A stretch of DNA of 47,048 nucleotides, from IMG/VR virus record IMGVR_UViG_2563366978_000001. One strand, 5' to 3'. The stretch is from a virus. Its lineage: Duplodnaviria > Heunggongvirae > Uroviricota > Caudoviricetes. This document shows positions 149-40,287 of the stretch, one piece after another. The notes below the pieces were generated by a model, which worked only from the letters and a program-made list of their open reading frames with translations, did not search any database and was not told the DNA's origin. Positions within the stretch are counted from its first letter, which is position 1; each line of letters opens with the position of its first letter. Position numbers and translations under genes: made by a program.

Positions 149-2050
149 ATGAGCAAAGTAAAAATCGGTGAATTAATAAACTCACTTGTTAGCGATGTTG
201 AGTCAATAGATAACTCTGACCGTCCTCAAGGGGAGAAAACAAAAAAAATAAAGGCTGTTGCATTAAAATTTAAAAATGCATTATTTAATGACAAGCGAAA
301 GTTTAGGGGGAAAGGATTAGAAAAAAGAATTACAGCCAACACATTCAATGCCTATATGAGCAGGGCCAGAAAACGGTTTGATGATAAACTTCATCATAGC
401 TTTGAAAAAAATATACATCGCCTATCTGAAAAGTATCCTTTATATAATGAGGAGCTATTGTCATGGCTTTCTCTACCTGCTGCCGATATTCGCCAGAGAA
501 TGTCAGCTTTACAGGCAAAATTAAAATTAATTCTCCCTCTATCAGAAGATTTATCTAATATCAGAATTGGCGATAACAAAAGTCATAATAAGTTATTGAA
601 ATTATCAAATAAATATAAAGAGTGGCAATTCGCCATTTCTGATTTAACTAGCGATAACTGGAAAGATAAGCGCGATTATTTATATAAATTACTACAGCAA
701 GGATCTGCCTTACTTGAGGAGTTGAATCAGCTAAAAGTTAACCATGAGATTCTCTATCATCTTCAACTAAGCCCTGCCGAACGTGCATCTATCCAGCAAC
801 GATGGGCGGACGTTCTGCACAATAAGAAACGTAACGTGGTGGTCATTGATTACCCTAAATATATGCAAGCTATTTACGATATTATAAATAGCCCTGCTAC
901 ATTAAATAATCTAAACACTCGTTCAGGTATGGCTCCTTTGGCATTTGCACTTGCTGCATTGTCAGGAAGACGAATGATTGAGATTATGTATCAAGGTACA
1001 TTTACTGTTTCTGGTAAGTATACCGTTGATTTTTTAGGCCAAGCTAAAAAAAGAACTTCTGATAATATAACCAGAAAAATATATACATTATGCGAAGCAA
1101 AAACATTTGTTTATTTAATAAATGTACTTCGCTCATGCCCAGCAGCATCTGATTTTGATGATGTCGTTAAAGGTTATGGAGATAACGACACACGCTCTGA
1201 AAACGGACGTATTAATGCCATATTAGCAAAGGCTTTTAACCCGTGGGTTAAATCATTTTTCAAAGATGACCGCCGTGTTTATAAAGATAGTCGTGCTATT
1301 TATGCCCGTATTGCGTATGAAATGTTTTTCCGCGTAGATCCTCGTTGGAAAAACGTAGATGAAGATGTTTTCTTTATGGAAATTTTAGGCCATGACGATG
1401 AAAACACTCAATTACACTATAAGCAATTCAAGCTGGCCAACTTCTCAAAGACATGGAGGCCAAATACTGGAAACGAAAATACCAGGCTGGAAGCATTGCA
1501 GCAGCTTGATGACGAAATGCCTGGATTCGCCAGAGGAGATGCCGGGGTTCGTCTGCATAACACAGTTAAGCAGCTGGTAGAGCAGGACCCCTCTATAAAA
1601 ATCACGAACAGCACTCTAAGAGCGTTCAAATTTAGCCCAACAATGATTAGTCGATACCTGGAATTTGCTGCTGATGCTCTGGGGCAATTTGTTGGCGAAA
1701 ACGGACAATGGCAACTGAAAATAGATACTCCAGAAATCGTTATGCCTGACGAAGAAGAACTGGAAGCAATACCTGAACTGGCGGATGAATTATCAGAGGA
1801 TGACGATCTGGATGACGACGAAATTGAGATAGAGGAAGAGGAAGAGGAAGAGGAAGATAGCGTAGAAGAACAGCAACCGCCTGCACCTTCTTCGCCTGTA
1901 TCTAAGCCGGTATTTAAGCCGGTGAGAAATATTGGTGATGGCTCATACGTTGTTGAGTTTCATTATAATGGCCAGAATTATGCGTGGTCCGGCAGTGCAA
2001 ACAGCCCCATGTCAGCAATGCAGTTAGCATGGCTGACATATTTCGGTTAA
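149..2050 (+). CDS. telN: Protelomerase (telomere resolvase), N15 TelN-like, 633 aa
   Basis: 633-aa ORF with RBS AGGAGAGG upstream; length, N-terminus and acidic C-terminal tract match my memory of N15 TelN; sits next to the telomere end as in N15. Confidence 0.9.
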   Translation: MSKVKIGELINSLVSDVESIDNSDRPQGEKTKKIKAVALKFKNALFNDKRKFRGKGLEKRITANTFNAYMSRARKRFDDKLHHSFEKNIHRLSEKYPLYNEELLSWLSLPAADIRQRMSALQAKLKLILPLSEDLSNIRIGDNKSHNKLLKLSNKYKEWQFAISDLTSDNWKDKRDYLYKLLQQGSALLEELNQLKVNHEILYHLQLSPAERASIQQRWADVLHNKKRNVVVIDYPKYMQAIYDIINSPATLNNLNTRSGMAPLAFALAALSGRRMIEIMYQGTFTVSGKYTVDFLGQAKKRTSDNITRKIYTLCEAKTFVYLINVLRSCPAASDFDDVVKGYGDNDTRSENGRINAILAKAFNPWVKSFFKDDRRVYKDSRAIYARIAYEMFFRVDPRWKNVDEDVFFMEILGHDDENTQLHYKQFKLANFSKTWRPNTGNENTRLEALQQLDDEMPGFARGDAGVRLHNTVKQLVEQDPSIKITNSTLRAFKFSPTMISRYLEFAADALGQFVGENGQWQLKIDTPEIVMPDEEELEAIPELADELSEDDDLDDDEIEIEEEEEEEEDSVEEQQPPAPSSPVSKPVFKPVRNIGDGSYVVEFHYNGQNYAWSGSANSPMSAMQLAWLTYFG

Positions 2051-2090: not shown

Positions 2091-2221
2091 GTGACCTACC
2101 TCGCCTGCCCCCTGCAAAGGGCAGAAGTAACGGAGGAAACGCGGCTGCAACCACAGACATCACCGCCCCGACTGCGAGGCTTCCCTTCTCTAAGAAGGGC
2201 ATAAATTCGGGCTGGTCAACC

Positions 2222-3004
2222 CTATTTATTGGTGATTTCTGCTGGCTTTAGCTGCGCGGATAACTGCTCAAGTTTTTGAACTGCCAGTTCAAAATGCGCG
2301 GGTAACGCCTTTTCCAGATCAGAGTTAATATCGGTGATGGGTAAATCACCACACGACATACTCCGCCTACCCCCACGAACAACATCACGCAACAACTCTC
2401 GTTCATACGTGCGCATGTTCCCCAATGCCGACTCAGCAGCCGTCAAAATCCGGCGCAGTTCTGCCGTAATTGCTGGCAAATCATCAACCGTTATGGGGTT
2501 CGGGGATGGATTACGACACGCCCGACGCAAAGCTAACCATACACCGCTAATCCAGGCATTTCGGTACTGAAAACTTTGTGCTATATCGTTAATCAGCCCT
2601 CGCAGATACTCTTTCTGCCTCCAGTTCAACGGCTCCGCTGCTCGCATTGGCTCAGGCTCGATGTAAACGTACTCTCCATTTTTGCGAATAGAGGGCAAGA
2701 CTTCGTTCGTTACCCATTTGCGAAACCGCCAAGCTGTTGTGCCTTGCTTCACCGCGTCACGGCAGCGGAGGATCAGGGTGTATAGACCTGACTCTGAAAT
2801 AATATTTAGCTTTTGCTCTCCGCCAGGGGTGTAACTTAAAGTTACACCCTTTTCATCCTCATCCAGAGACATTAGCGCCTTCCGGGAATTAACGAGTCTT
2901 AAAGCATCACATACATCCTTAGCCACAAACCACGGCTCACCGTTAATCATCACTACACGAACCTGATGCTCTTCCTGAAAGGAAAAGACTGCTAACGCGC
3001 TCAT
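2222..3004 (-). CDS. Phage antirepressor-like protein (BRO-N type N-terminal domain), 260 aa
   Basis: N-terminus FSFQEEHQVRVVMINGEPWFVAKDVCDALRL resembles the BRO-N/antirepressor fold; last gene of a coupled operon. Confidence 0.7.
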   Translation of the reverse strand: MSALAVFSFQEEHQVRVVMINGEPWFVAKDVCDALRLVNSRKALMSLDEDEKGVTLSYTPGGEQKLNIISESGLYTLILRCRDAVKQGTTAWRFRKWVTNEVLPSIRKNGEYVYIEPEPMRAAEPLNWRQKEYLRGLINDIAQSFQYRNAWISGVWLALRRACRNPSPNPITVDDLPAITAELRRILTAAESALGNMRTYERELLRDVVRGGRRSMSCGDLPITDINSDLEKALPAHFELAVQKLEQLSAQLKPAEITNK

Positions 3005-3234
3005 TCAGCCTCCTTATCGCGCAGCAAGTGCGACGAGAGAGACGCAGAATATCCCTGTGCTTCATGCGTTAACTCACACGCAATCTGCAGAAGTTTTCCA
3101 GCCTCTGAGAGGTAAATCGACGCCTCACAACTGGAGACTGTCCGATGGGCTGATGATACGAGCGCATAGACCTGAGCCAGACGTTCATCCAACGATTCCA
3201 GCAGGCCAACAGTGTTCATTTTTACCTGATTCAT
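3001..3234 (-). CDS. Hypothetical 77-aa protein, translationally coupled (ATGA overlap) to the antirepressor gene
   Basis: ORF stop overlaps the downstream start by ATGA at 3001-3004. Confidence 0.55.
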   Translation of the reverse strand: MNQVKMNTVGLLESLDERLAQVYALVSSAHRTVSSCEASIYLSEAGKLLQIACELTHEAQGYSASLSSHLLRDKEAE

Positions 3235-3395
3235 GCAGCCACCTCGCGCACCGGAATACGGGCAGACAATACCAGGACAAACCGGCTGGCGAACTGGCGA
3301 CGAGCTTCCCGTTCAGATGACGCGATAGTGGAAAGATGATGAATGTGGGACTTTTTGTCTGTGCGAACGACTGCCGCAAATTTGAATTTGAACAT
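3231..3395 (-). CDS. Small 54-aa ORF (MFKFKFAAVVRTDKK...), first gene of the antirepressor operon; icd-like position
   Basis: Hand-translated; not in the ORF track (below 60 aa); GGAG RBS 9 nt upstream; ATGA overlap with the next gene at 3231-3234. Confidence 0.45.
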   Translation of the reverse strand: MFKFKFAAVVRTDKKSHIHHLSTIASSEREARRQFASRFVLVLSARIPVREVAA

Positions 3396-3404
3396 GGTAT
3401 GCAC

Positions 3405-3540
3405 TCCGTTTTATTGGTCGTGCTACCACCAGAGTTGCGAATCTCTTTATTGGTGGTAGCCCAGGCGGGGTTCGCAATACCGGTAAACGAAGAAACCGGC
3501 CCGACCGAAGTCAGCCCCACCTGAGCCACCATAATTCGGA
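3405..3540 (-). ncRNA. Candidate C4-type antisense regulatory RNA / structured leader upstream of the antirepressor operon
   Basis: GC-rich inverted repeats (GCTACCACC...GGTGGTAGC) immediately 5' of the first small ORF; by analogy with P1/N15 c4-icd-ant organisation; no homology check possible. Confidence 0.25.
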
Positions 3541-3694
3541 TATGCGCAGGTCTATACACACAAAAAAACACGCTGGCGCGTGTTGTGCGCTTCGTTTTGC
3601 CAGGATTGCGAAGTCCCGACTGCGGGATTTACCGCAGCGAGGTGACTTTACCTCCAAAACGACGCACACGTCAATAATTTGCAAAGACATTTTA

Positions 3695-3727
3695 CCCCGT
3701 GACCAGTCACGGGGACAGGTGTTTTTA
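3695..3727 (+). terminator. Hairpin CCCCGTGACCAGTCACGGGG followed by GTTTTTAT; intrinsic terminator, possibly bidirectional
   Basis: 8-9 bp GC-rich stem, T-tract on plus strand, A-rich on the other side; lies between the lipoprotein gene end and the antirepressor operon. Confidence 0.5.
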
Positions 3728-3775
3728 TAGTTTGCTTGAACAAACGATCAGAACATGAACAATGTTATTGTTCCG

Positions 3776-4588
3776 TTATAAGAAAGCCTCACGCGAACGG
3801 AACACCCACTCTAGCTGTACTGGATAAATTTCTCCCGTTTTAATATTTATTAGGCGCGCGGCTAATAACTCACCCATAAAAACCTGAGTTTTATGGCTCA
3901 TATCTGACGGGTTAAAAATAGTAGGTGATGTTATATCAATATGATTACTGCTTAACCCATTTATCTTTGCTAAATATTCAATTCTAAGGTCTTTTACATT
4001 AACATCTTTTGGTATTTGTCCTTTTATATCAATATCTGCCCATATTGTTTCAGGGTTCCCTTCATTTATTTGTGTACTACCAAAGATAATTTCGGCACCT
4101 AAAGTATTTAACACTTCTACATCAGCAGATATTCCAAAAGCATTAGCACCAACATAGCTTCCATGCTTTGTTATTTCAGAGGAATCGACATGAAAACCAT
4201 ACCATCCAGACATATCTCGAGATGTTATCACGCTATCACTACCGCTATTCTCAACAAAATCACGGTTAAGATATGTTCCTGAGTATGTGATACTTCTAGG
4301 GATAGACAAACCTTGAGATGTTAAAACGTTGTTGTATGGCGCGTATGTTAATGAGTGAACGACATATCCACGCCATGAACCATCATCTATCTTTGATGCA
4401 ATAATTCTATTAAATTCCTTACCTGTGAGTATTTTGCTGCTAAAATCACCAACAGAGTTGATAGGTACTCTTTTTTCTTTTTCGAATTTATACTCAACGT
4501 CCGTTGATGCCTTATTATCATATTGATAAGTGCATCCAGATAATAACAAGATAGAGAGTAATAAAGCTGTTGTTTTTTTGTTACGCAT
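3776..4588 (-). CDS. Lipoprotein, 270 aa (signal peptide with lipobox LLSGC)
   Basis: N-terminal MRNKKTTALLLSILLLSGC; AT-rich codon usage unlike the flanking backbone. Confidence 0.75.
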   Translation of the reverse strand: MRNKKTTALLLSILLLSGCTYQYDNKASTDVEYKFEKEKRVPINSVGDFSSKILTGKEFNRIIASKIDDGSWRGYVVHSLTYAPYNNVLTSQGLSIPRSITYSGTYLNRDFVENSGSDSVITSRDMSGWYGFHVDSSEITKHGSYVGANAFGISADVEVLNTLGAEIIFGSTQINEGNPETIWADIDIKGQIPKDVNVKDLRIEYLAKINGLSSNHIDITSPTIFNPSDMSHKTQVFMGELLAARLINIKTGEIYPVQLEWVFRSREAFL

Positions 4589-9831: not shown

Positions 9832-10428
9832 TCATCTACCCTCAACCATGAATGATTTGATCGTTCCGACTATTTGGTGAACAAATTCAAGATCGCTTTT
9901 CCTGAAGATGGCGCGTTGTGAATTTGTTCCGTCCAGATAGTAATTTTCATCATCAAAACGGGCCAGGCGCTGGATGGTGATATTTCCTGCAGTATCACGA
10001 ACCAGAACATCCTCGCCGGGAACCAGTTCCAGCGCAGAATCGACCAGGAGAAAATCGCCTGGCTGATAGTTTCCCTGCGCCAGATTGCTGATAGTTAACG
10101 CATAAACAGTATTGCGCTGGCTGATGAATGGCAGGAATCGCTCAGTATTTGGAACCTGTCCTGGCTTCCACTCTTCATCAGGTCCACTTTCAGTTGTGCC
10201 AATAACAGGAATGCGATCAGGGTCATATTCTGTCCCATACAGCACCCAATGCACTGGCTTGCGTAAGCACTTAGCCAGGGCAATACCTATCTCCAGTGAC
10301 GGCATTACGTCGCCACGTTCTAAGTTTTGGACGCCTGCAATAGAGATATCGACAGCCTCAGCAACTTCTCGCAACGTCAGCTTCATCTCTAAACGGCGTG
10401 CTTTCAGTCGTTCGCCTCGTGTTTTCAT
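9832..10428 (-). CDS. cB: CI-like prophage repressor (N-terminal HTH, C-terminal domain), N15 CB-like
   Basis: HTH motif LTLREVAEAVDISIAGVQNLERG; divergent from a cro-like gene across palindromic operators. Confidence 0.85.
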   Translation of the reverse strand: MKTRGERLKARRLEMKLTLREVAEAVDISIAGVQNLERGDVMPSLEIGIALAKCLRKPVHWVLYGTEYDPDRIPVIGTTESGPDEEWKPGQVPNTERFLPFISQRNTVYALTISNLAQGNYQPGDFLLVDSALELVPGEDVLVRDTAGNITIQRLARFDDENYYLDGTNSQRAIFRKSDLEFVHQIVGTIKSFMVEGR

Positions 10429-10450
10429 AGCTTAATCATAAATGATCTTC

Positions 10451-10492
10451 TTATAGCTGGCTATAAAATTTATTTATTATAGCTGGCTTTAA
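10451..10492. promoter_or_regulatory. Two operator palindromes, TTATAGCTGGCTATAA (10451-10466) and TTATAGCTGGCTTTAA (10477-10492), between cB and cro
   Basis: 7-bp inverted arms with a 2-bp centre, repeated 26 bp apart in the divergent promoter region. Confidence 0.75.
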
Positions 10493-10741
10493 ATGAGATT
10501 TATTGCTTATAATAACCGCATGAAACCAGAAGAACTTATTCGCCACTTTGGCAGTGTAGAAAAAGCAGCGGCTGGGGTAGGTGTAACACCCGGTGCTGTT
10601 TACCAATGGTTAACCGCTGGAGAGATTCCTTCATTGCGGCAAAGTGATATTGAAGTTCGTACTGCTTACAAGCTGAAGAGTGACTTTACAACTCGGCGGG
10701 TAAAGCAGTCGATTAAGGAGAGCCGTAAGCGTGGAGCTTGA
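10493..10741 (+). CDS. cro: Cro-like small DNA-binding regulator (start may be the second ATG at 10520)
   Basis: Small basic ORF divergent from the repressor; HTH-like GVGVTPGAVYQWL. Confidence 0.75.
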   Translation: MRFIAYNNRMKPEELIRHFGSVEKAAAGVGVTPGAVYQWLTAGEIPSLRQSDIEVRTAYKLKSDFTTRRVKQSIKESRKRGA

Positions 10742-11441
10742 GTATATACGCAGCTGCGTCTCCACGGCATTGGCTGATATTCATTATCGCCAGCGTGGCA
10801 TCCTAGAGGTCCAGCTTGAGCAGATGCGTCTAGGCAGATCAGGACGCTTTAACAATAAACCAGTCCGGTCAATCAGTGTAGGTGATGATAACTCATACGA
10901 AGTGTCCGTTCCTGCTGAGCCGGTTAGATTCCACCAGGGGAAAACATTTAAACAATCATCAATGTTGCTCACTGATATTGATTTTCAGAGCGCCAGCTGG
11001 CGCAGGGCTATTGGTCAGTTGAATAACGAGGAATCAGCTTGGCTTTATTATTGCTACGGATGCAAGCCTGATTACAACAATGATGTGATTGTTTGTCAGT
11101 GGTTATGGCTTGATTTTCTGGTTGCTCATTCGGGGGGCGGCTTTAAAAAAATGAAGGCCTCCACGAAAAAAGCCATGCGGAAATTGATTTATTACGCGGC
11201 ACAGCAGGTTAAATCAGAACTTACGTGTGCTGAGGCAGTTGATGAGAGAGAACAGGACAGGCATCTGAGTTTTCTACTGAATATATCTATTGATAGCTGG
11301 AGACAAGATTATAAAGAACGCTGGCTTTTAATTAAGTCGCGATGTCTGAGCTTAAATCGAACTGCATTATTAAATGCGGCGGAGAAGCGCAGTGAAATCA
11401 TCAAACGCCATCGGGCAGGAAGTGCCATTCTGCCTTTGTAA
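10731..11441 (+). CDS. Hypothetical protein, 236 aa, in the position of the N15 Q-like late regulator
   Basis: ORF directly downstream of cro; function inferred from position only. Confidence 0.5.
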   Translation: MELEYIRSCVSTALADIHYRQRGILEVQLEQMRLGRSGRFNNKPVRSISVGDDNSYEVSVPAEPVRFHQGKTFKQSSMLLTDIDFQSASWRRAIGQLNNEESAWLYYCYGCKPDYNNDVIVCQWLWLDFLVAHSGGGFKKMKASTKKAMRKLIYYAAQQVKSELTCAEAVDEREQDRHLSFLLNISIDSWRQDYKERWLLIKSRCLSLNRTALLNAAEKRSEIIKRHRAGSAILPL

Positions 11442-11445
11442 ACAA

Positions 11446-11694
11446 GTTATGTTCAGGAAACCGTCGAAGCCAGAATTAAGGTATTCGGGGGTAAGAAATG
11501 AATATGTTATCTGGTGTCCAACTTGTGGTTACAGGACACGACCAGATAGTAATAAGCAGTCTGTAATTGCCGATTGGTATTTATCAAATCAGCCAGGTAA
11601 TAAGCATATAGAAAATCTTTGGATTAAGCGTTACTTGGAAATCAGAGAGGGTGCGACCGTGGTCGCACAAGAAAATGAAAATAACGCCATTTAA
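11446..11694 (+). CDS. Small Cys-containing protein (CPTCGY motif), about 82 aa
   Basis: In-frame ATG after the upstream stop; contains one centromere-like palindrome at its 3' end. Confidence 0.45.
   Translation, partial: VMFRKPSKPELRYSGVRNEYVIWCPTCGYRTRPDSNKQSVIADWYLSNQPGNKHIENLWIKRYLEIREGATVVAQENENNAI
11651..11668. repeat. sopC-like palindrome GTGCGACCGTGGTCGCAC; putative centromere site
   Basis: 18-bp palindrome, 8-bp arms with 2-bp centre. Confidence 0.65.
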
Positions 11695-39687: not shown

Positions 39688-40287
39688 ATGCGTAAATTAT
39701 GTGCTGTTATTCTGTCCGCAGTAGTCTGGCTGGTTGCCGCTGGTACGCCAGCGAGCGCAGCAGAGCATCAGTCCACACTAAGCGCCGGGTATCTTCAGAC
39801 CCATACTGATATGCCAGGCAGTGATGACCTGAAGGGCATTAACGTGAAATACCGTTATGAATTTACGGACACGCTGGGGCTGGTGACGTCATTCAGTTAT
39901 GCCAATGCCAAAGATGAGCAAAAAACGCATTACAGCGATACCCGCTGGCATGAAGATTCCGTGCGTAACCGCTGGTTCAGCATGATGGCGGGGCCATCTG
40001 TACGCGTGAATGAATGGTTCAGTGCTTATGCGATGGCGGGTATGGCTTACAGCCGTGTGTCGACCTTCTCCGGGGATTATCTCCGCGTAACTGACAACAA
40101 GGGGAAAACGCACGATGTGCTGACCGGAAGTGATGACGGTCGCCACAGCAACACGTCTCTGGCGTGGGGGGCTGGCGTGCAGTTTAACCCGACCGAATCC
40201 GTGGCCATTGACCTTGCTTATGAAGGTTCCGGCAGTGGTGACTGGCGCACTGACGGTTTCATCGTGGGTGTCGGTTATAAATTCTGA
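39688..40287 (+). CDS. lom: Outer membrane protein Lom (Ail/Lom family)
   Basis: Signal peptide; C-terminus AYEGSGSGDWRTDGFIVGVGYKF matches lambda Lom. Confidence 0.9.
   Translation: MRKLCAVILSAVVWLVAAGTPASAAEHQSTLSAGYLQTHTDMPGSDDLKGINVKYRYEFTDTLGLVTSFSYANAKDEQKTHYSDTRWHEDSVRNRWFSMMAGPSVRVNEWFSAYAMAGMAYSRVSTFSGDYLRVTDNKGKTHDVLTGSDDGRHSNTSLAWGAGVQFNPTESVAIDLAYEGSGSGDWRTDGFIVGVGYKF

Follow-up and report, generated by a model that had tools for sequence, protein, structure and literature searches.

A probable immA anti-immunity locus with a C4-type small RNA and an icd-antA-antB operon in an N15-like telomere phage

The DNA analyzed here is a stretch of 47,048 nucleotides from a virus (IMG/VR record IMGVR_UViG_2563366978_000001; hereafter, the window), which is of the N15-like telomere phage type. 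On its minus strand, three open reading frames (ORFs) of 54, 77, and 260 amino acids (aa) are chained by ATGA stop-start overlaps at both junctions, GCTGCATGAATC and GCTGAATGAGCG. This three-gene, translationally coupled operon had been reported in the initial annotation; both overlaps were found, and both are kept in seven of nine relatives (N15, YDC107_1, NAR688, Kp020009, KpLi5, phiKO2, and PhiR46_1). ATGA overlaps alone are frequent in phage operons, and what stands above chance here is the conserved combination of these overlaps with the RNA elements described below. The operon is convergent with the protelomerase gene (positions 149 to 2050, plus strand), as in N15. The window also encodes a homologue of the CB repressor (9835 to 10431, 77% identity), and Cro and Q homologues were likewise found.

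The first gene (ORF54; 3231 to 3395, minus strand, ATG start) is an icd-like member of a cell division inhibitor family. It shows 94% identity to N15 gp32 over the C-terminal 54 aa of the latter and matched the NCBIfam model NF033153 (“Icd-like”) with 67 bits (cutoff, 25). Its PGAP product name is “host cell division inhibitor Icd-like protein”; the PHROG labels that match it read “transcriptional repressor.” A match to Pfam LtuB (18 bits; cutoff, 25) was dropped as chance. Substitutions relative to the relatives were distributed 33/32/151 over codon positions 1, 2, and 3, and on this sequence evidence ORF54 is a genuine coding gene under purifying selection. It had been expected to be missed by standard annotation, which proved not to be the case: the gene is annotated by PGAP and in phiKO2, KpLi5, and PhiR46_1.

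The second gene is antA-like (ORF77; 3001 to 3234, minus strand), and its product is presumed to be the antirepressor that targets the CB repressor. This product is 63% identical to N15 gp31 and matches two PHROG families labeled “anti-repressor” (phrog_6301 and phrog_10889). The third gene is antB-like (ORF260; 2222 to 3004, minus strand), and its product carries a Bro-N domain (Pfam PF02498, E = 1e−21) and is 74% identical to N15 gp30; truncated versions of antB occur in PhiR46_1 and in several plasmids of E. coli. The 260-aa BRO-N protein had been taken for the antirepressor. However, phiKO2 Gp28 is labeled “similar to antirepressor N15 AntA” and Gp27 “auxiliary anti-repressor N15 AntB,” and AntA is named as the N15 antirepressor in the literature (PMC2847241), which assigns that role to the 77-aa protein and leaves the BRO-N protein as the auxiliary AntB. 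A PADLOC scan of the three operon proteins and the neighboring lipoprotein-like ORF returned no matches.

The proposal that a C4-like RNA lies next to this operon was borne out by the Rfam C4 covariance search suggested for positions 3400 to 3600 of the minus strand. A full-length match to RF01695 was detected at 3449 to 3536 (minus strand; model positions 1 to 87 of 87, 82.3 bits against a gathering score of 45, E = 9e−15), placing a C4-type small RNA gene, comparable to N15 CA, P4 CI, and P1 c4, 53 nt upstream of the ORF54 start codon, the first in the operon. The RNA consists of a 17-bp acceptor-like outer stem, a UUCG-capped hairpin 1, and a hairpin 2 with a 12-nt loop, and ACCACCA is visible at its 3′ end. 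Its minimum-free-energy fold (−48.1 kcal/mol, z = −5.6 relative to shuffled sequences) is the structure of the Rfam model. Across 13 phages, 99.7% of the cells in 27 base pairs were paired, with compensatory changes in 13 pairs (slid controls reached 48% at most). The GC-rich inverted repeat pointed out upstream of the operon is real, in the form of the outer stem and two inner hairpins, but it is the same-strand RNA gene itself rather than the target of the RNA. Mature C4-type RNAs are ∼77 to 80 nt long and are cut from the leader transcript, in an RNase P-dependent manner in P1 and P4. By analogy with P1, P4, and N15, the RNA of the window would also be processed from its leader.

Annotations of this region raise an alternative in which 3449 to 3571 codes for a protein (cA, an N-terminal extension of N15 gp32, or an “ash family protein”) and not for an RNA. 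In its favor, record U63086 has a cA CDS, the annotation of N15 gives gp32 a length of 96 aa, PGAP places an “ash family protein” fragment here, and the PHROG labels of ORF54 denote a repressor. However, the frame with this peptide (3185 to 3571) does not match that of ORF54, and extending ORF54 upstream in its own frame reaches a stop after 3 codons, so the gp32 extension lacks conservation at the protein level. PGAP flags its own call as a partial pseudogene, and the variation within 3449 to 3571 is compensatory stem variation. The title of Ravin et al. 1999 also points to “a small processed RNA” as the controller. We rejected the protein-coding reading and give it almost no credence.

Two segments of the RNA are unpaired in its fold and constitute its recognition sequences: b′ (CUUCGUUU, 3485 to 3492, minus strand), in the loop of hairpin 2, and a′ (AUUGCGAA, 3471 to 3478, minus strand), in the single-stranded junction that follows hairpin 2. 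Each has one complementary site upstream and one downstream, all on the minus strand. Upstream, a1 (UUCGCAAU, 3605 to 3612) lies in the loop of leader hairpin 2 and is a perfect 8-bp complement to a′, and b1 (AAACGAAG, 3590 to 3597) is a perfect 8-bp complement to b′ in a single-stranded stretch 5 nt before a terminator stem. Cognate a1 sites occur at position 26 to 27 of the leader element in 13 of 13 phages, and the cognate b1 sites of the relatives occur at position 39 to 44. Downstream, a2 (UUCGCAA, 3435 to 3441) is a perfect 7-bp complement to a′ and is displayed by a small hairpin, in which AGAG (3443 to 3446) pairs with CUCU (3431 to 3434) to close a loop of 8 nt; this hairpin was also predicted in the seven closest N15-like relatives. 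The b2 site (AAACGGAG, 3404 to 3411) is complementary to b′ over 8 bp, one of them G-U, and covers the GGAG Shine-Dalgarno sequence of ORF54 (3404 to 3407), 8 nt before the AUG. Cognate b2 sites abut the Shine-Dalgarno sequence in the relatives, and the P1 record annotates b2 in the same place. The complementarity of the b′ loop to the ribosome binding site (RBS) of ORF54 supports the earlier suggestion that the RNA would act next to the first RBS.

The pairing between the RNA and these sites exceeded chance expectation. The composite a..b motif occurred in the 47 kb at those places only (0.02 expected), and none of 5,000 shuffled recognition segments reached the observed pairing. Averaged over 13 phages, RNA-target pairing scored 29.8 for cognate and 18.1 for noncognate combinations. 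These pairings were scored by an anchored, alignment-free search; column-based counts on the MAFFT alignment were discarded, as a1 was out of register by 1 nt and a2/b2 could not be kept in register in the three most distant phages. For the helix between a1b1 and a′b′, for which the RNAalifold register was used, 92% of cells were paired, with 50 compensatory cells versus 20 in shuffles. Covariation of a1/b1 with a′/b′ was as strong as that of a2/b2.

Upstream, the system reaches past the region first described and takes in a promoter-like site as well as an isrK/seqA-like element with a terminator (3563 to 3674). A sigma-70-like promoter with a consensus match (TTGACG, 18-nt spacer, TAAAGT; 3645 to 3674, minus strand) is the sole promoter-like site on the minus strand within 2100 to 3850, and both hexamers are conserved in position in 13 of 13 relatives and in P4. 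Judged from sequence, this site is the equivalent of N15 Pa and P4 PLE, and the predicted transcription start (∼3638) is the first base of the leader element. The element itself (3563 to 3638, minus strand) comprises hairpin 1, hairpin 2 with a1 in its loop, a linker containing b1, and an intrinsic terminator. It matched Rfam RF01394 (isrK) over its full length with 52.8 bits, barely over the gathering score of 50 (relatives, 55 to 76 bits), whereas a match to RF03163 (c4-a1b1) at 3597 to 3651 remained below threshold (24.8 bits, E = 3.8e−4; gathering score, 46.7). The latter model passes in P1 and four Klebsiella relatives. An isrK-like element lies directly upstream of the C4-type RNA in 13 of 13 relatives and also in P4; P1 has the tandem as well, with the scores reversed relative to the window (isrK below threshold at 35 bits, c4-a1b1 passing). 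A mir-1231 match in P1 was set aside as chance. The terminator, identified by a terminator scan (3560 to 3584, minus strand), has a 7-bp G+C-rich stem (AACACGC/GCGUGUU) followed by U7 and is annotated at the equivalent place in the N15 and phiKO2 records.

Comparison with known systems placed the locus closest to N15 immA (Pa, cA/CA RNA, icd, antA, and antB; genes 32 to 30), which is annotated in phiKO2 as well. It lies at the same place in the genome, convergent to the protelomerase gene. N15 has the same three genes with the same 4-nt overlaps (the aa identities of 94%, 63%, and 74% given above), and, as in the window, its C4-type RNA lies 53 to 54 nt before icd and is preceded by an isrK-like terminator element. 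The leader DNA of the window is 79 to 82% identical to that of N15 immA. The recognition segments differ: those of the window, a′ and b′, correspond to GUUGAGAA and CUUCUUGU in N15, and the four targets have changed to match. Because the recognition sequences and all four targets differ, the window and N15 are probably heteroimmune at this locus. The a-type of the window is that of Kpn74 and its b-type that of NAR688, a mosaic combination. Upstream, N15 gene 33 is replaced in the window by a low-GC lipoprotein-like gene.

The analysis directly showed that all RNA parts are present in this order, with their structures and covariation, that the three proteins are orthologous to those of N15, and that the window encodes the CB prophage repressor. 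We consider it very likely that these parts make up the immA (anti-immunity) locus of an N15-like linear plasmid prophage, with RNA control as follows. The constitutive-type promoter at ∼3645 to 3674 would give rise to one leader transcript carrying, in order, the isrK/seqA-like element (a1, b1, and the terminator), the C4/CA-type RNA, a2, b2, icd, antA, and antB. The small RNA would be excised from this leader, exposing b′ in the hairpin 2 loop and a′ in the junction. Acting in trans, it would pair with a1/b1 of nascent leaders and increase termination at the upstream terminator, resulting in less read-through and in autoregulation of the small RNA. Its pairing with a2/b2 would in addition occlude the Shine-Dalgarno sequence of icd. 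All three proteins would then be off in the lysogen because antA and antB depend on icd translation through ATGA coupling. Were this repression to fail, Icd would stop host cell division, and AntA, aided by AntB, would inactivate the CB repressor. In this scheme, we infer the RNA processing, the transcription start, the RNA-dependent termination, the translational repression, and the protein activities. An IsrK-C4 (seqA-CI) immunity system has been described for P4, P1, P7, and N15 (PMC3632133), and the N15 antirepressor operon comprises genes 30 to 32 (PMC2847241, PMC4488713).

The P1/P7 immI locus (c4, icd, ant1/ant2) bears on how much of this control is exerted at the ribosome binding site. 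The curated P1 order, a1-b1-c4-a2-b2-icd-ATGA-ant1, is that of the window, with near-identical spacings (P1 versus window, 7 versus 7, 22 versus 23, and 10 versus 8 nt), and the P1 C4 belongs to the same Rfam family (68.8 bits). The likeness to P1 icd-ant that had been proposed for the operon thus holds for its geometry; the true orthologue, in contrast, is N15 immA (icd-antA-antB). By BLASTP, ORF54 had no match to P1 Icd, and ORF77 and ORF260 matched Ant1 only with E > 0.2; P1 was also absent from the tblastn matches of ORF54. The first gene is Icd-like in both phages by NCBIfam naming, a link between ORF54 and P1 Icd that consists of the shared name “Icd-like protein” only (from NF033153 for ORF54 and from the RefSeq product name for P1 Icd). 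The P1 c4 promoter carries a C1 operator, a P1 feature. In a purely P1-style scheme, the C4-type RNA would block only the icd RBS at a2/b2, antA and antB would be lost via coupling and Rho polarity, and the terminator and a1/b1 would be unregulated or would serve as a cis folding aid or decoy. The overlap of b2 with the Shine-Dalgarno sequence, 8 nt from the AUG, and the conserved ATGA couplings are consistent with this scheme, as is the P1 record, which assigns “repression of icd ant translation” to a2/b2 and calls a1/b1 merely “putative.” P1 c4 has been reported to block translation at the ant RBS (PMC12197685). However, the U7 terminator directly after b1 is kept in 13 of 13 relatives and in P4, and a1/b1 covary with a′/b′ no less strongly than a2/b2 do. 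N15 reportedly also relies on RNA-dependent premature termination, in the accounts attributed to Ravin et al. 1999 (Mol Microbiol 34:980) and Briani et al. 2000. Premature termination by RNA is the mechanism described for P4, in which CI RNA pairs with seqA and seqC (PMC4825925). We regard control at the RBS alone as possible, albeit doubtful. How a1/b1 pairing would boost termination in the scheme with both controls is not evident from the sequence, as the terminator hairpin forms in the minimum-free-energy fold of the leader even without the small RNA; a search within the 76-nt leader for an antiterminator that the small RNA could break returned only a weak GCGC/GCGC alternative.

The immunity region of the satellite phage P4 (PLE, seqA, CI RNA/seqB, and seqC) shares the architecture of the window, with an isrK-like element, a C4-type RNA, and an Icd-like CDS that is 50% identical to ORF54. 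The a1, b1, a2, and b2 sites are at the same relative positions, with b2 over the Shine-Dalgarno sequence. The spacer between the two RNA elements is 107 nt in P4 and 26 nt in the window, and the genes downstream are epsilon, orf151, and the alpha replication gene in P4 but antA and antB in the window. Immunity of P4 depends primarily on this RNA, which controls replication genes there.

The region around the icd start can adopt alternative pairings. A downstream copy of the C4 5′ stem arm (UGGUGGUAGC, 3422 to 3431, minus strand), a 10-nt perfect complement, can pair with either the C4 3′ arm (3451 to 3460) or the start codon region. Across 13 phages, 92.1% of the cells of this copy were paired, and five pairs showed compensatory changes; the copy is also present in P4, at the same relative position, and in P1 by eye. 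RNAfold of the post-C4 leader predicted an RBS hairpin (3394 to 3429, minus strand; −17.5 kcal/mol) in which GGUGGUAGCAC pairs with GUGCAUACCAU. The start codon contributes its A and U to the stem, the apical region holds b2 and the Shine-Dalgarno sequence, and the fold recurs in the seven closest relatives. Covariation backs each of two mutually exclusive conformers of the leader.

Alternative conformers are also known from the isrK-orf45-anrP locus of Salmonella Gifsy-1 (IsrK, STnc1160), which has a terminated isrK-family leader RNA, a processed ∼80-nt RNA, and an AUGA-coupled antirepressor, and in which experiments have shown the short RNA to be an activator (PMC4825925). Were the window to follow this type of positive control, the short leader RNA (3563 to 3638) would act in trans, titrating the C4-type RNA or opening a closed read-through mRNA, and the first ORF and the antirepressor would be translated; the locus would then be an inducing switch rather than an immunity device alone. 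The isrK model match over its gathering score, the complementarity of the short RNA to the C4-type RNA through a1 and b1, and the two exclusive, covarying conformers, which resemble structures A and B of isrK-orf45, are in keeping with this reading, and IsrK activates translation of orf45 and anrP through AUGA coupling (PMC4825925). Against this, Gifsy-1 orf45 overlaps the C4-like RNA and is conserved as nucleotide sequence but not as a protein, whereas in the window 53 nt separate the RNA from the start of ORF54, a gene under purifying selection. The genetics of Ravin et al. 1999 are said to define the N15 cA region as a negative (immunity) function; the cA CDS of U63086 is seen here to carry the label “secondary immunity repressor.” We hold positive control of this type as a tentative possibility. 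An activating role of the short leader RNA may exist alongside repression, the two roles not being exclusive.

A further view treats the leader as a self-contained, multistate RNA switch in which anti-immunity is bistable and the a and b determinants reassort independently between phages. Pairing of the 5′-arm copy with the C4 3′ arm or the icd start codon region, together with pairing of a1/b1 with a′/b′ in cis, would mechanically tie the accessibility of the icd start codon to the way in which the small RNA folds and is processed, and the terminated 76-nt leader RNA would be a sponge for the small RNA, rendering the system bistable. Independent reassortment of a and b, which the Kpn74-type a and NAR688-type b of the window seem to reflect, would generate new heteroimmunity types if true. 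We consider this extended scheme unlikely as a whole; the covarying 5′-arm mimic is nevertheless a candidate conformational switch.

The initial observation is real and correctly interpreted, and the system is already known: experiments in N15, P1, and P4 have characterized the orthologous system, and Rfam has a family for each of the two RNA elements. The practical value of the present analysis is for annotation. The small RNA gene has no RNA annotation in the identical RefSeq plasmid pG749_3 or in N15-family records, where it is instead labeled as a protein fragment (“ash family protein,” “secondary immunity repressor,” or the long form of gp32), including a miscall by PGAP as an “ash family” pseudogene. 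Similarly, the antirepressor label is usually placed on the BRO-N protein and not on the 77-aa AntA. The comparative data provide a clean natural series of compensatory mutations for the a and b recognition sites. Downstream of the operon, a terminator scan of the gap between antB and telN (1950 to 2300) found nothing under the criteria of the tool. A 9-bp hairpin (AAGGCACCG/CGGTGCCTT) was spotted by eye at 2062 to 2085, where phiKO2 annotates a “putative bidirectional terminator.”

On the minus strand of the window, ORFs of 54, 77 and 260 aa (ORF54, 3231-3395; ORF77, 3001-3234; ORF260, 2222-3004) together cover 2222-3395. Each stop codon overlaps the next start as ATGA; both overlaps that the initial annotation had claimed were found in the sequence. 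These 4-nt overlaps are identical in N15, and ATGA is kept at both junctions in 7 of 9 relatives examined. ORF54 is orthologous to the last 54 aa of N15 gp32 (Icd; 94% identity), ORF77 to gp31 (AntA; 63%) and ORF260 to gp30 (AntB; 74%), and the operon as a whole is the orthologue of the N15 anti-immunity operon, immA. Judged from its sequence, ORF54 is a genuine gene: it scored 67 bits against the NCBIfam model NF033153, "host cell division inhibitor Icd-like" (cut-off 25), and its substitutions relative to relatives number 33, 32 and 151 at codon positions 1, 2 and 3. In Kpn74 (L006, about 1782-1980), the icd-like frame extends to 65 aa and no longer has the ATGA junction (CTGCTTGAGTC); the cause is either decay of icd or else a frameshift or sequencing error. 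YDC107_1 (L003) has the icd-like ORF twice: the other copy, 100% identical, lies at record 40012-40173, far from its immA and adjoined by a "gp31"-like gene.

ORF260 does contain the Bro-N domain for which it had been called the antirepressor. In the N15 system, however, the antirepressor is the 77-aa AntA and the Bro-N protein is auxiliary: the curated phiKO2 record labels the homologues Icd, AntA (antirepressor) and AntB (auxiliary antirepressor), and PMC2847241 refers to "the N15 antirepressor operon (genes 30-32)" and "the antirepressor AntA." The function of AntB has not been elucidated (PMC4488713). Truncation of antB is seen in PhiR46_1, where 54 aa remain (L004, 3177-3341), and in six or more complete E. 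coli plasmids (H94-H99; the match, at 99.5% identity, ends at query position 759). As all of these retain the leader, icd and antA, antB is naturally dispensable or exchangeable.

An Rfam scan of the whole window at the gathering threshold returned exactly two matches, both on the minus strand. The C4 antisense RNA (RF01695) was matched over its full length at 3449-3536 (82.3 bits; gathering score, 45), within the 3400-3600 region where such an RNA had been proposed, and isrK (RF01394) was matched at 3563-3638 (52.8 bits; gathering score, 50). The GC-rich inverted repeat noted upstream of the ORFs is real, but it is the RNA gene itself, encoded, like the operon, on the minus strand. At the 3' end of the isrK-like element, U7 follows a 7-bp G+C-rich hairpin (terminator, 3560-3584). 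The first base of the element is the predicted start of the sole sigma-70-like site found on the minus strand around the operon (3645-3674; TTGACG, 18-nt spacer, TAAAGT), the hexamers of which are positionally conserved in P4 and in every relative. The system reaches upstream to 3674, beyond the 2222-3540 originally delimited. Folded alone, the C4-type RNA adopts the model structure (−48.1 kcal/mol, z = −5.6), which it also retains when the whole leader is folded. The isrK-then-C4 tandem was present in 13 of 13 relatives fetched (telomere phages of Escherichia, Klebsiella, Yersinia and Aeromonas, together with Stx, P88-like and mEp460 phages) and also in P4. A perfect palindrome (3695-3714; CCCCGTGAC-TG-GTCACGGGG) precedes the −35 hexamer by about 20 nt; its core (CGTGACTGGTCACG) is kept in all N15-like relatives, and its outer positions vary, uncompensated in N15. 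It could serve the preceding gene as a terminator or the immA promoter as a protein-binding operator.

Two unpaired segments of the C4-type RNA, b' in the hairpin 2 loop (CUUCGUUU, 3485-3492) and a' in the junction (AUUGCGAA, 3471-3478), are each complementary to two places in the same transcript, one on either side of the RNA, all on the minus strand. Upstream, a1 (UUCGCAAU, 3605-3612) occupies the loop of leader hairpin 2, and b1 (AAACGAAG, 3590-3597) lies immediately 5' of the terminator. Downstream, a2 (UUCGCAA, 3435-3441) forms a small-hairpin loop, and b2 (AAACGGAG, 3404-3411) includes the GGAG Shine-Dalgarno (SD) sequence, 8 nt before the ORF54 AUG. With the trivial match to the complement of the C4-type RNA itself set aside, a search of the 47-kb window for the composite motif a-N(5-30)-b returned the a1/b1 and a2/b2 sites alone (0.02 expected by chance), and 0 of 5,000 shuffled a'/b' segments reached the observed pairing. 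Across 13 phages, the a' and b' sequences vary and the four targets vary along with them at fixed positions (mean summed RNA-target pairing, 29.8 for cognate versus 18.1 for non-cognate combinations). On the tool alignment, the C4 cloverleaf was paired in 99.7% of cells, with compensatory changes in 13 pairs (covariation, 0.432 versus 0.224 shuffled), and the a1b1:a'b' helix in 92.2%, with 50 compensatory cells versus 20 shuffled (covariation, 0.568 versus 0.203). The sequences thus establish which leader parts are present, how they are ordered and folded, and that they have co-evolved. The window shares a' with Kpn74 and b' with NAR688 (3471-3492 compared with L006 and L005), a combination unique among the 13 distinct leaders compared (PhiR46_1 is identical to the window), which suggests that the a and b specificity determinants reassort independently.

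A passage of PMC4825925 citing the Deho laboratory describes P4 CI RNA as processed out of its leader and pairing with seqA, upstream, and seqC, downstream, to cause premature termination. IsrK and C4 are structural homologues of seqA and CI, with similar systems in P1, P7 and N15 (PMC3632133), and P1 c4 blocks ant mRNA around the ribosome-binding site (RBS) (PMC12197685). From this published picture we infer a four-step scheme of RNA processing, termination and translational block in the window; the protein activities are likewise inferred. The promoter at 3645-3674 would drive leader transcription, and the C4-type RNA would be cut out of the leader. Its pairing with a1/b1 would increase termination at 3560-3584, reducing read-through and autoregulating the RNA, and its pairing with a2/b2 would occlude the icd RBS and, through the ATGA couplings, also silence antA and antB. 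The P4 terminator t1 is reported (Briani et al., 2000) to lie between PLE and cI, to require CI RNA and seqA and to serve CI autoregulation; this fits the window terminator. No mechanism by which a1/b1 pairing raises termination was derivable from the sequence, because the terminator hairpin is already present in the minimum-free-energy fold of the leader.

In the unprocessed leader, RNAalifold favoured a cis helix of a1/b1 with a'/b' and, in addition, a second helix between the C4 3' arm and a copy of the 5' arm that lies downstream (UGGUGGUAGC, 3422-3431). This second helix, also found in P4, is paired in 92.1% of cells, and 5 of its 10 pairs carry compensatory changes. Alternatively, the 5'-arm copy folds onto the start-codon region, and the predicted RBS hairpin that results presents b2 and the SD. 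These conformers parallel "structure A/B" of Gifsy-1 isrK-orf45; in that system, translation of an antirepressor coupled through AUGA is activated by the short IsrK RNA (PMC4825925). Given this parallel, the terminated 76-nt leader RNA may act as a sponge or activator, a live alternative that is compatible with the four-step scheme.

The feature is real and was correctly observed, its initial interpretation was essentially right, and the system is already known as N15 immA, P4 immunity and P1 immI, with both RNAs in Rfam. The proposed P1 icd-ant layout holds for the RNA architecture: the curated P1 record lists promoters, a1, b1, c4, a2, b2 and icd, then a 4-nt overlap into ant1, with site spacings of 7, 22 and 10 nt versus 7, 23 and 8 nt in the window. 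The P1 proteins, in contrast, had no detectable homology to the window Icd, AntA and AntB. In P4, every leader part occupies the matching relative place. The window contributes instance-level details, namely, its mosaic specificity (Kpn74-type a, NAR688-type b) and the co-varying 5'-arm mimic.

ORF54 had been expected to escape standard annotation, but PGAP and several phage records do annotate it. The mis-annotated element is the C4-type RNA gene, entered as protein in three ways. PGAP calls exactly 3449-3571(−) a partial "ash family protein" pseudogene; U63086 enters the region as a CDS, "cA secondary immunity repressor"; and N15 gp32 and YDC107_5406 are over-extended across it at the N terminus. 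The mis-annotated loci are window 3449-3571(−), L016 1610-1732, L002 2748-3038 and L001 413-715, and none of these records has an ncRNA feature. Both RNAs are already entered as ncRNAs in one GenBank record, LC710660. A protein-coding reading of 3449-3571 was rejected; in the window, the frame concerned is out of register with ORF54.

The window opens with a protelomerase gene (149-2050), convergent with the three ORFs and containing all four TelK/ResT Pfam domains. By megablast, the region groups with N15-like telomere phages (Ravinvirus; YDC107_1, 90% identity; N15, 79% over the leader), and plasmid pG749_3 of E. coli G749 is 100% identical to 2222-3680. Between the convergent antB and protelomerase genes lies a 9-bp hairpin (2062-2085; AAGGCACCG/CGGTGCCTT), at a place equivalent to a "putative bidirectional terminator" annotated in phiKO2; the terminator scan made no call here because there is no T-run. 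The primary immunity region immB (9835-11462) encodes a CB repressor homologue (9835-10431, minus strand; 77% identity to N15 CB), Cro (10520-10702, plus strand; 87%) and a Q-like late activator (10731-11462, plus strand; 67%). The CB homologue is the presumed target of the window antirepressor. Where PhiR46_1 has a "Spackle exclusion protein" and N15 has gp33, in a slot of variable content that separates immA from the replication-side genes, the window contains a 270-aa ORF (3776-4588, minus strand) with a lipoprotein-type signal peptide (MRNKKTTALLLSILLLSGC...) and a GC content of 33-40%, versus about 50% in the ant operon. It had no match in Pfam, PHROG, NCBIfam or PADLOC and may be a moron or superinfection-exclusion gene.
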